A stretch of 39,586 nt of DNA from Escherichia phage vB_EcoP_LNA3. A program made the position numbers and the translations under genes. This document shows, piece by piece, positions 2,532-34,004 of the stretch (its first letter is position 1; each line of letters begins with the position of its first letter). The notes under the pieces were generated by a model. That model made no database searches. It worked only from the letters and a program-made list of their open reading frames with translations, and was not told the origin of the DNA. Location of the stretch: sequence record MZ311862.1; one strand, 5' to 3'.

Positions 2532-2581
2532 AAGGGCCTATAGATTTACCTTAACTATCACTATAGGGACTATAGGCCCTT
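2532..2581 (+). promoter_or_regulatory. perfect 12-bp inverted repeat (AAGGGCCTATAG / CTATAGGCCCTT) enclosing the gene 13 promoter; candidate RNase III site (T7 R13 position)
   Basis: Arms at 2532..2543 and 2570..2581 are exact reverse complements; the 26-nt loop holds the promoter core. Confidence 0.5.
2551..2569 (+). promoter_or_regulatory. phage RNA polymerase promoter (phi13 position)
   Basis: TTAACTATCACTATAGGGA, one of 11 copies of the conserved 19-mer; sits 32 bp upstream of the gene 13 start. Confidence 0.8.
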
Positions 2582-9830: not shown

Positions 9831-9846
9831 ACTATCACTATAGGAA
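9828..9846 (+). promoter_or_regulatory. phage RNA polymerase promoter (phi17 position)
   Basis: TAAACTATCACTATAGGAA, overlapping the gp16 stop codon and 50 bp upstream of gene 17. Confidence 0.75.
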
Positions 9847-15988: not shown

Positions 15989-16084
15989 CTGAATGAATAA
16001 CTATAGGCGAAAACTGAATTAATAAGCAGTTAGTAACCTATAGTTACTACCAGTCTAACCTACTGTTTTACAAGGAGTTTGGAC

Positions 16085-16103
16085 TTAACTATCACTATAG
16101 GGA
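16085..16103 (+). promoter_or_regulatory. phage RNA polymerase promoter (phiOR position)
   Basis: TTAACTATCACTATAGGGA downstream of gene 19, before the right-end region. Confidence 0.75.
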
Positions 16104-16438: not shown

Positions 16439-16676
16439 CGCCATCATGGTAACAATCAACGAAAGCAAGACCTAAGGTCAGTTCATAGCTGACGCTACTC
16501 TACTGACCTTAGCTACTGTAGTCAAGGACTTTAGGTAACACCTTAAGAGAAGCTCACTTAGGGTCATCCTACTTATTGGTCTATCCTAGTGTCGCCTGAC
16601 CTACGGTCCTTGACCTACAGTGGCTGTGGCCTACAGTAGTGACGATGAGTTTTGGACCAAAAGTTTGAGACCACAT

Positions 16677-17132: not shown

Positions 17133-17246
17133 ATAGCTTCCGTCAACACGACACGGCAACAACCGGATAGTGAAGACGCCTGGTCATCCCGGTTAAGTAG
17201 ACAGCCTGATAAGTCATACGAACAACAGGCAGATGACAGAAAGTAG

Positions 17247-22225: not shown

Positions 22226-22243
22226 TAAACTATCACTATAGGA
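22226..22243 (+). promoter_or_regulatory. phage RNA polymerase promoter (phi1.1 position)
   Basis: TAAACTATCACTATAGGA; by analogy with T7 this region may hold the primary replication origin. Confidence 0.75.
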
Positions 22244-22244
22244 T

Positions 22245-22288
22245 TAGACTCAAGGTCATGACTCAAAGTCGTGGCCTTCATGATTAAC
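22245..22288 (+). ncRNA. conserved hairpin element, candidate RNase III site (T7 R1.1 position)
   Basis: TAGACTCAAGGTCAT-GACTCAAAGTC-GTGGCCTTCATGATTAAC; same stem as the elements at 13683 and 29603. Confidence 0.45.
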
Positions 22289-25115: not shown

Positions 25116-25829
25116 ATGGCTAAAGAGCAACTGAAGACTTTCACCACTCCGGTAGCTGGTATAGTTGAGCCTTACGCATGGCTGAACAAAGCAGACACCA
25201 AGTTTAATGAGCGTGGTGAGCATAAGGTTAACCTGACATTCGACCTGAGCAACCCGAAGGTCCGTAAGATGATTGATGTCTTACAGAAGATTCACGACGA
25301 TGCGTATGCGAAAGCACTCGCAGACCACGAGAAGAACCCACCTCAGGTTCAGCGTGGCAAGAAGCCTATCGAGCCGCGTGAAGGCGACATGCCGTGGATT
25401 GAGAATGGTGACGGCACTGTTACCCTTAAGTTTAAATGCTTTGCGTCTTACCTTAAAGACGGCAAGTCCGAGCCTATCGTATTACGGTTCTACGACACCG
25501 ATGCTAAGTTAATCCGTGACGTCCCGAATATTGGCGCTGGCTCAAAGCTGAAGGTCAAGTTTAAAGTCCTGCCATTCAAGTGGAACGCTGCTACTGGTGC
25601 AAGCGTTAAGCTCCAGCTTGAGTCCTGCCTTCTGGTAGAACTGAAGGAGTGGAAAGGTGATGGTGCTGGTGGCGATGGTGGCTGGGGTGATGATGAAGAC
25701 CTCGGTACTGGTTACAAAGCGTCAACCGATGGTGACTTCGGTGACGATGACTTCGGTGACGATGACTTCGGTGACGATGGTTCCGAAGGTGGTGACGACT
25801 CCAGCTCTGGTGGAGATTACGACTTCTAA
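25116..25829 (+). CDS. single-stranded DNA-binding protein (gp2.5)
   Basis: 237 aa with an acidic C-terminal tail ending in Phe (...GGDYDF), as in T7 gp2.5. Confidence 0.9.
   Translation: MAKEQLKTFTTPVAGIVEPYAWLNKADTKFNERGEHKVNLTFDLSNPKVRKMIDVLQKIHDDAYAKALADHEKNPPQVQRGKKPIEPREGDMPWIENGDGTVTLKFKCFASYLKDGKSEPIVLRFYDTDAKLIRDVPNIGAGSKLKVKFKVLPFKWNAATGASVKLQLESCLLVELKEWKGDGAGGDGGWGDDEDLGTGYKASTDGDFGDDDFGDDDFGDDGSEGGDDSSSGGDYDF
25734..25778 (+). repeat. three in-frame tandem copies of a 15-bp unit (GACTTCGGTGACGAT) within the SSB acidic tail
   Basis: Perfect tandem copies encoding the tripled DFGDD motif in the gp2.5 C-terminal tail. Confidence 0.9.
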
Positions 25830-26281
25830 TGGCCCAATGGTCTGCAAAACGGGGGCACTCTGTGGGTGCCTACCGCTCTGGACTTGAAGCCAAGAACCAG
25901 CAGTGGCTGGAACAGAACGGCGTCAAAGCGGAGTACGAAAGCCATTATATCAACTATGTGATTCCGGCTTCCGACCACAAGTACACACCAGACTTTATCC
26001 TTCCAAACGGTATCATCGTGGAGACCAAAGGAATCTTCGCAGTTGAAGACCGTAAGAAGCACCTTCTGGTACGAGAACAGCACCCAGAGTTAGACATCCG
26101 GTTCGTGTTCTCGAGTTCCCGCTCCAAGTTATACAAAGGGTCTCCGACCACGTATGGCGCATGGTGCGAAAAGAACGGCTTTAAATTTGCCGATAAATTC
26201 ATCCCGGTTGAGTGGCTGCGAGAGGCGACTGTACGTCTGCCTTCAGGTATACTCATCCCCAAGAAGAAAGGAGTTAAGTGA
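25829..26281 (+). CDS. endonuclease I (Holliday junction resolvase, gp3)
   Basis: 150 aa; YVIPASDHKYTPDFILPNGIIVETKG...RKKHLLVREQHPELDIRFVFSSSRSKLYKGSPTTYG closely matches T7 endonuclease I. Confidence 0.92.
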   Translation: MAQWSAKRGHSVGAYRSGLEAKNQQWLEQNGVKAEYESHYINYVIPASDHKYTPDFILPNGIIVETKGIFAVEDRKKHLLVREQHPELDIRFVFSSSRSKLYKGSPTTYGAWCEKNGFKFADKFIPVEWLREATVRLPSGILIPKKKGVK

Positions 26282-27208: not shown

Positions 27209-27424
27209 ATGATTAAACTTATCGAATTTCTAGGTCGTCTGGTGGTGCGTGGTTATCGTCGTGCTGCGGTACTGGAACGAAAGGTAGAAAAGAAGACTGC
27301 TGATGGCGCGGCTGATGCTGCTGCTCTGGCTGACAAGCTGACCATCGCGTCACTGGAAGCTGGCATGAAGGCTCGTCAGGCTGATACCAAAGCTGACAAG
27401 TTGTCTCAGTTCTTCAAAGACTAA
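27209..27424 (+). CDS. hypothetical protein
   Basis: 71-aa Ala/Lys-rich ORF with AAGGAG Shine-Dalgarno. Confidence 0.5.
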   Translation: MIKLIEFLGRLVVRGYRRAAVLERKVEKKTADGAADAAALADKLTIASLEAGMKARQADTKADKLSQFFKD

Positions 27425-27440
27425 ACTATCACCTTAGGGA
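27422..27440 (+). promoter_or_regulatory. degenerate phage-promoter-like sequence (phi3.8/phi4 position)
   Basis: TAAACTATCACCTTAGGGA differs from the consensus at -4 and -3; function uncertain. Confidence 0.35.
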
Positions 27441-27492
27441 TGGGACCATGAGTCCTGTCCCTTTGTTCGCATTTGTGACTAAGGAGTGACCG

Positions 27493-33868: not shown

Positions 33869-33922
33869 GTCTAGCCGATAGTCATATCCTATCAATCCAA
33901 CAGTCATCCATAGGTGAAACAC

Positions 33923-33941
33923 TAAACTATCACTATAGGGA
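33923..33941 (+). promoter_or_regulatory. phage RNA polymerase promoter (phi6.5 position)
   Basis: TAAACTATCACTATAGGGA, exact consensus. Confidence 0.8.
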
Positions 33942-34004
33942 CTTTAGGACCTAAGATATGACTATAAGATAGACTTTAGTCTTAACTTAAAGAGGAGATT
34001 CAAG

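Follow-up and report, generated by a model that had tools for sequence, protein, structure and literature searches.

A promoter-bracketing inverted repeat at the gene 12-13 junction of a Kayfunavirus genome as a probable counterpart of the RNase III signal R13

The junction between genes 12 and 13 of Escherichia phage vB_EcoP_LNA3 contains a perfect 12-bp inverted repeat whose arms bracket the class III promoter φ13. The element is probably the Kayfunavirus (K1F-type) counterpart of R13, an RNase III signal of the T7 group, with φ13 embedded in it. The repeat, the promoter, the predicted fold, the conservation, and the match in position and architecture to annotated R13 and R6.5 sites were computed here, and from them we infer RNase III cleavage in this phage, its exact position, and its effects on stability. 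The presence of φ13 within R13 and of a promoter in a loop (R6.5) is already documented in T7-group phages. What appears to be new, by analogy with those sites, is an unannotated member that has an R6.5-type geometry at the R13 locus.

The repeat, the promoter, and the predicted fold

The window analysed is the whole stretch of 39,586 nucleotides (record MZ311862.1), and all coordinates refer to its plus strand. It represents a complete genome of ~39.6 kb in circularly permuted form, beginning just ahead of gene 12; the early region with the leftmost promoter starts near 16000. On sequence grounds, the window belongs to Kayfunavirus: the region is 95-96% identical to genomes of this genus (Vec13, K1F and others), and the 96-nt junction at 2510-2605 is 100% identical in K1F and recurs in 220 phage records of GenBank.

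Gene 12 (tail tubular protein B; ORF list and K1F annotation of the homologue) occupies 167-2524 and ends with the stop codon TAA at 2522-2524. The junction then reads TCTAACTTATTG, the 5' arm AAGGGCCTATAG (2532-2543), ATTTACCTTAACTATCACTATAGGGA, the 3' arm CTATAGGCCCTT (2570-2581), and AAGGTTATAAGGAGACTTTATG. The first-pass annotation had described the arms as exact reverse complements separated by 26 nt, and the repeat finder gives the same result (12 of 12 positions). As RNA, the arms are AAGGGCCUAUAG and CUAUAGGCCCUU. Downstream, the Shine-Dalgarno sequence AAGGAG lies at 2590-2595, where a ribosome binding site is annotated at the homologous place in phage Pipis, and gene 13 (internal virion protein A; ORF list and K1F annotation) extends from its start codon at 2601-2603 to 3071.

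No other perfect inverted repeat of 12 bp whose loop measures 3-60 nt exists in the window. When dinucleotide-preserving shuffles of the window were used as a control for chance, at least one such repeat was present in 17% of them (mean 0.225). The repeat by itself is therefore not significant genome-wide, as chance could give one, and its significance rests on position and conservation.

Promoter φ13, CCTTAACTATCACTATAGGGACT (2549-2571, promoter positions -17 to +6), agrees with the K1F promoter consensus MCTAAACTATCACTATAGGRAAA quoted in record MZ726794. The same record annotates a promoter at the homologous place, and a promoter is also annotated at the φ13 site in EcoDS1 and ASO2B. The window holds 11 copies of the K1F-type promoter, against 0.04 expected, and the transcription start (+1, G2566) was assigned from the consensus in MZ726794 and these 11 copies. 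By the gene map, the other late promoters have their +1 at 9843 (φ17), 33938 (φ6.5), 36759 (φ9), and 37744 (φ10). The promoter's CTATAGGGA and the 3' arm's CTATAGGCC are tandem copies, forming a direct repeat.

The 26-nt loop (2544-2569) corresponds to promoter positions -22 to +4, so that the earlier placement of the promoter inside the loop stands, with the qualification that the full promoter (-17 to +6) runs to 2571. The 3' arm represents nucleotides +5 to +16 of the φ13 transcript. Since G2566 lies 3' of the 5' arm, transcripts started at this promoter hold only the 3' arm, as had been proposed, and the 5' arm is present in read-through transcripts only.

In read-through RNA, the arms are predicted to pair with probabilities of 0.63-1.0, 10 of the 12 pairs reaching at least 0.99, with fold z-scores of -3.4 to -3.7. 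The suggestion that such transcripts can form a 12-bp hairpin is thus borne out by the prediction, at a stem probability of about 1.0. The minimum free energy (MFE) fold adds two further helices. The first is an optional 5-bp apical helix within the loop (2549-2553 with 2564-2568). The second is a lower stem in which the 5' strand UAACUU (2522-2527), which includes the gene 12 stop codon, pairs with the 3' strand AGGUUA (2583-2588), given in the MFE fold as UAACU(U) with (A)AGGUUA; UAACU is kept in relatives. This lower stem is weak, with pairing probability of only about 0.4-0.5, and is separated from the upper stem by a predicted asymmetric internal loop (2528-2531 opposite 2582). RNA begun at G2566 is predicted to be weakly structured. 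A T7-like pairing of the 5' arm (2537-2543) with the promoter's CUAUAGG (2561-2567) was also considered and has a probability of 0.0.

Two other roles for the fold were rejected. A translational switch is unsupported, since the predicted unpaired probability of the Shine-Dalgarno sequence is much alike (0.5-0.7) whether the RNA is read-through, started at φ13, or hypothetically processed. An intrinsic terminator, whether rho-independent or of T7 class I, is likewise unsupported: a scan of 2300-2800 found no terminator-like site, and the 3' arm is followed by AAGGUUAUAAGG rather than by a U-tract. A search of the whole window for Rfam families gave 0 matches at gathering score.

Conservation in Kayfunavirus and likeness to annotated sites

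Loci of relatives were retrieved from GenBank, metagenomes, and IMG/VR, with gp13 and the C-terminus of gp12 as entry points. Of the 23 distinct Kayfunavirus-type junctions obtained, 17 differ from one another over the hairpin; the metagenome scan yielded just two informative junctions of this type (L115 and L117). A 9-bp core, GGCCTATAG/CTATAGGCC (also written GGCCUAUAG/CUAUAGGCC; 2535-2543 on the 5' side), is near-invariant in the 17 distinct junctions, down to 53% gp12 identity (L117). The exceptions are one pair-breaking substitution each in L115 and L117 and the loss of the bottom core pair in L174, while an A-to-G change in L014 keeps pairing as G·U. The 3' arm shows a single substitution among the 17 sequences (T to C at column 50, in L117). 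Variation is found from the stop codon to the 5' arm, in the loop's 5' half, and in the codons at the end of gp12.

Outside the core, the picture is different. The outer three pairs are broken in most relatives, and since pair 2534-2579 is broken in 10 of the 17, the perfect 12 bp is limited to the K1F subgroup. Across Kayfunavirus junctions the helix is 9 to 19 bp long. Most relatives have 9-10 contiguous bp, a mismatch, and then 4-5 bp. Other lineages make up for this by lengthening the helix, either below (G·U, U-A, U-A) or above, where U·G pairs carry it into GGGA (+1 to +4); the outcome is 13 bp in L047, a shifted 12 bp in Ro103C3lw, and a continuous 19 bp in Dickeya phage Monomax. Overall, 87% of cells are paired, compared with 23-60% in slid controls. 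The sense-strand fold is better than the antisense fold in 17 of 19 Kayfunavirus junctions, the sequences being related and the p-values nominal.

Covariation was sought in the 17 distinct junctions. A double-sided change was found in 0 of 19 pairs, and the shuffle control was not exceeded because the 3' strand is near-invariant. Within the genus, the support for the structure is consequently conservation rather than covariation. None of the 60 GenBank records sampled carries a stem-loop annotation at this junction, and the literature search returned no relevant paper linking Kayfunavirus or K1F with RNase III.

Beyond the genus, some 60 further distinct gene 12-13 junctions were compared. In nearly every lineage with a recognisable promoter, a segment upstream is complementary to the promoter or to the initially transcribed region. 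Examples are UUCUCCCUGUGGUGG with UCACUAUAGGGAGAA in T7, GUCUCCCUGCGGUG with CACUAAAGGGAGAC in T3, and UCCUUAUGGUGUGC with GCACACUAUAGGGA in K11-like phages. Measured against shuffled upstream arms, these duplexes have z-scores mostly of -3 to -6.7, with 2-6 G·U pairs per helix. The sense strand is more stable than the antisense strand in 49 of 61 junctions of other genera, where again the sequences are related and p-values nominal. Three layouts can be distinguished. In layout A, the promoter itself is the 3' arm (T7, T3, K11-like phages, and the K1F-related L024/L052). In layout B, seen in Kayfunavirus and arising separately in L080 and L125, the promoter lies between the arms. Layout C is a two-tier stem. 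In L024/L052 (IMGVR_UViG_2700988933, gp12 62% identical), GUCCCCUAUGG pairs with the promoter's CUAUAGGGGAC in the T7-type layout; therefore, both layouts are present among close relatives.

The first-pass annotation had also placed the element at the T7 R13 position. It does lie between genes 12 and 13, as do the R13 annotations of T3 and φYeO3-12. The curated T3 record gives a stem_loop, "RNase III recognition site R13", at 25443-25480 that contains phi13 (25457-25479), and the φYeO3-12 record gives a "putative RNase III site R13" at 26209-26246 that contains phi13 (26223-26245). In the folded T7 junction, the φ13 promoter supplies the 3' strand of a 15-bp stem. T7 R13 is reportedly cleaved at 27281, seven nt past the φ13 start at 27274, a position attributed to the 1983 work of Dunn and Studier. 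R13 is counted among ten T7 RNase cleavage sites (PMC6938266), and a promoter adjoining a cleavage site is a common T7 arrangement (PMC6938266, citing Dunn and Studier 1983).

The element thus shares with the R13 of T7, T3, and φYeO3-12 the intergenic position, the need for an arm upstream of the promoter, and a hairpin that can form in read-through RNA only. The geometry, in contrast, departs from that of T7/T3 R13. There the 3' arm is the promoter (about -12 to +8), whereas here the arms flank it and the 3' arm covers +5 to +16. The T7/T3 stems measure 14-19 bp, include G·U pairs as well as small internal loops, and are closed by apical loops of 8-9 nt, as compared with 12 perfect bp and a loop of 26 nt in the window. 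The arms are also unlike the upstream arms of T7 and T3 given above and cannot be aligned with them, only the promoter core being shared. Equivalence to T7/T3 R13 is positional and structural.

The closer match in geometry, a point absent from the first-pass annotation, is T3 R6.5. In the curated record AJ318471, the R6.5 stem-loop (17135-17206) holds phi6.5 (17160-17182) mid-way. It folds into a 10-bp upper stem with the 3' arm from about +6, φ6.5 in the loop, and a 9-bp lower stem. Both elements have an upper stem of ~10-12 bp, a 3' arm beginning about 5-6 nt past the transcription start, the entire promoter in the loop, and a second, lower stem across an internal loop. They differ in locus (genes 6.3/6.5 for R6.5), in sequence, and in the lower stem, which has 9 bp in T3 and 5-6 bp here.

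A processing model and its competitors

RNase III substrates typically span two helical turns, sometimes by coaxial stacking of short helices, and internal loops confine cleavage to one strand, leaving a protective 3' hairpin (PMC1540722, PMC3867540). At least 11 bp are required from the point of cleavage to the loop (PMC1540722). The 12-bp upper stem, the 5-6 bp lower stem, and the optional 5-bp apical helix together give a helix long enough by the length rule (PMC1540722). From the base upward, the bottom pairs of the upper stem are A-U, A-U, G-C, and G-C. A cut exactly at the base of the 12-bp helix would put a G-C at proximal-box position 2, a pair which is inhibitory in the minimal model substrate μR1.1, so that in this one register the element would differ from T7 R1.1/μR1.1. 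Moving the register by one pair would give the canonical pattern of proximal and distal boxes, without the inhibitory G-C.

By analogy with the annotated sites, the following course of events may be proposed. Late transcripts from φ6.5, φ9, and φ10 that pass through genes 11-12 would carry both arms and fold into the 12-bp upper stem and the weak lower stem across the small asymmetric internal loop. Host RNase III would make a single cut in the 3' strand, close to the foot of the upper stem; the cut is predicted at about 2581-2584, where the upper stem meets the internal loop, on account of the rule of at least 11 bp (PMC1540722) and the geometry of T7/T3 R13. After the cut, the gene 11-12 mRNA would end in a protective 3'-terminal hairpin, and the mRNA from gene 13 onward would begin with a short 5'-monophosphate leader. 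Transcripts started at G2566, which are devoid of the 5' arm, could not form the site and would be immune to the cut. They would keep the 5'-triphosphate extension GGGACUAUAGGCCCUU, that is, 16 extra 5' nucleotides. The idea of a layout that could give two populations of mRNA is not new for the T7 group.

Several considerations count against assignment to R13. Besides the missing stem-loop annotation in the sampled records, the lack of covariation, the weak lower stem, the one unfavourable register, and the unremarkable statistics of the repeat by itself, the conservation of the 3' arm may reflect a role as initially transcribed sequence and 5' UTR. In addition, the helix is shorter than that of T7/T3 R13 (12 bp, and 9-10 contiguous bp in most relatives) and the loop is far larger. 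Alternatively, the hairpin might function in read-through RNA without RNase III, for instance by blocking 3'-5' exonucleases once another cleavage has occurred, by insulating the folding of the gene 12 cistron from that of gene 13, or by making RNA polymerase pause. Its conservation, its predicted stability, and the bias towards the sense strand favour a hairpin and no particular nuclease, a 12-bp stem closed by a loop of 26 nt is on the short side for an RNase III substrate, and one register sets a G-C at the inhibitory position. Such a function is nevertheless unlikely, because T3 and φYeO3-12 annotate an RNase III site at the equivalent position, R13 is counted among the T7 RNase cleavage sites (PMC6938266), the architecture is shared with an annotated RNase III site (T3 R6.5), and both a U-tract and a terminator-like site are missing. 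The repeat could, on the other hand, be a by-product without function. The 3' arm's CTATAGGCC would then have arisen by partial tandem duplication of the promoter's CTATAGGGA, and the 5' arm would be what is left of an arm of T7 type that formerly paired with the promoter; the 12-bp match would be historical and persist through linkage to the promoter, which is essential. The tandem copies themselves speak for such an origin, as do the retention of the T7 layout in the related lineage L024/L052, the lack of compensatory covariation in the 17 distinct junctions, and the ease with which inverted repeats arise from the self-complementary CTATAG and GGCC, a 12-bp repeat being present somewhere in 17% of shuffles. 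However, the core of the 5' arm lies outside both the promoter (at -31 to -23) and the coding sequence and is still near-invariant in 17 diverged sequences; the arms survive replacement of the promoter specificity region; changes that extend the helix, G·U included, accumulate in several lineages; and other genera build the equivalent structure from unrelated arm sequences. A functionless origin is accordingly given little credence.

The least probable of the explanations considered, and one with hardly any weight in our estimate, is that the palindrome acts at the level of DNA, either as the site of a dimeric protein that regulates φ13 or as a cruciform that extrudes the promoter. The perfect 12-bp repeat does bracket the promoter symmetrically. 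In DNA and on the opposite strand, however, the G·U pairs of relatives and other genera amount to mismatches, folding is better for the sense than for the antisense strand, most relatives have breaks in the outer three pairs, and a spacer of 26 nt would be expected to disfavour cruciform extrusion. T7-group phages are not known to have a repressor of class III promoters. The reading as a Kayfunavirus R13 with φ13 embedded in it is thus preferred and considered probable.

Promoter exchange, related hairpins, and significance

The identical arms enclose promoters with differing specificity regions (...AACTATCACTATAGGGA, ...ACACCCTCACTATAGGGA, and ...TAACACTCACTATAGGGA). Shigella phage SFP20 (L181) uses the ACCCTCACTATAGG type as its promoter throughout the genome (8 copies). 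With the same arms around different promoter specificity types, the conservation of the arms does not depend on promoter recognition. Among phages classified as or resembling Kayfunavirus (L181, L029, and the window), promoter specificity falls into at least three classes, AACTATCACTATAGG, ACCCTCACTATAGG, and ACACTCACTATAGG, a distribution which would imply co-divergence of polymerase and promoter inside one genus.

It can tentatively be suggested that the Kayfunavirus R13 hairpin has been uncoupled from promoter recognition, the 3' arm having shifted off the promoter into the initially transcribed region, possibly via a 9-nt duplication of CTATAGGNN, and the loop having become an exchangeable promoter cassette. 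If this is true, the processing hairpin would be retained while the specificity of the phage polymerase and promoter changes. In the T7/T3 layout, by contrast, each change of promoter specificity would force a compensating change in the 5' arm. The idea that a flanking geometry may free the hairpin from promoter specificity is modestly new.

Other hairpins were observed in the window. Promoter φ6.5 (+1 at 33938) lies inside a long-range 11-bp stem, AUAGUCAUAUC (33878-33888) with GAUAUGACUAU (33955-33965), with a 66-nt loop, a layout that matches R6.5/φ6.5 in the curated T3 record. The corresponding stem of SFP20, AUAGUCUUAUC with GAUAAGACUAU, shows a double-sided compensatory change from A-U to U-A. 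A 10-bp perfect inverted repeat, TAACTATAGG (15998-16007) with CCTATAGTTA (16037-16046), contains the promoter-core motif CTATAGG and has a fold z-score of -3.2; the leftmost phage promoter (+1 at 16100) follows ~55-100 nt downstream of it, and the genome end is presumed to be close by. In the early region, an 11-bp perfect inverted repeat, CTAAGGTCAGT (16472-16482) with ACTGACCTTAG (16502-16512; fold z-score -3.1), is a candidate for an R0.3/R0.5-type site of early RNase III processing. Finally, stable hairpins at 22252-22278 (12 bp) and 27436-27462 (11 bp) start at or just past promoters with +1 at 22241 and 27437, and resemble R1.1 and R3.8 of T3, sites that adjoin φ1.1 and φ3.8 or overlap with them.

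The element opens no new mechanism. K1F-type phages serve as therapeutic and engineering chassis, and it is mainly for annotation and engineering that the element matters. When the gene 12-13 junction is edited or φ13 is swapped, the flanking 12-mers should be treated as a probable signal for processing and stability of two mRNAs, that of genes 11-12 and that from gene 13 onward. For the T7 group as a whole, the rule of a promoter embedded in an RNase III hairpin would extend across its members even where the arm sequences, and the part of the promoter region which is paired, have been replaced.
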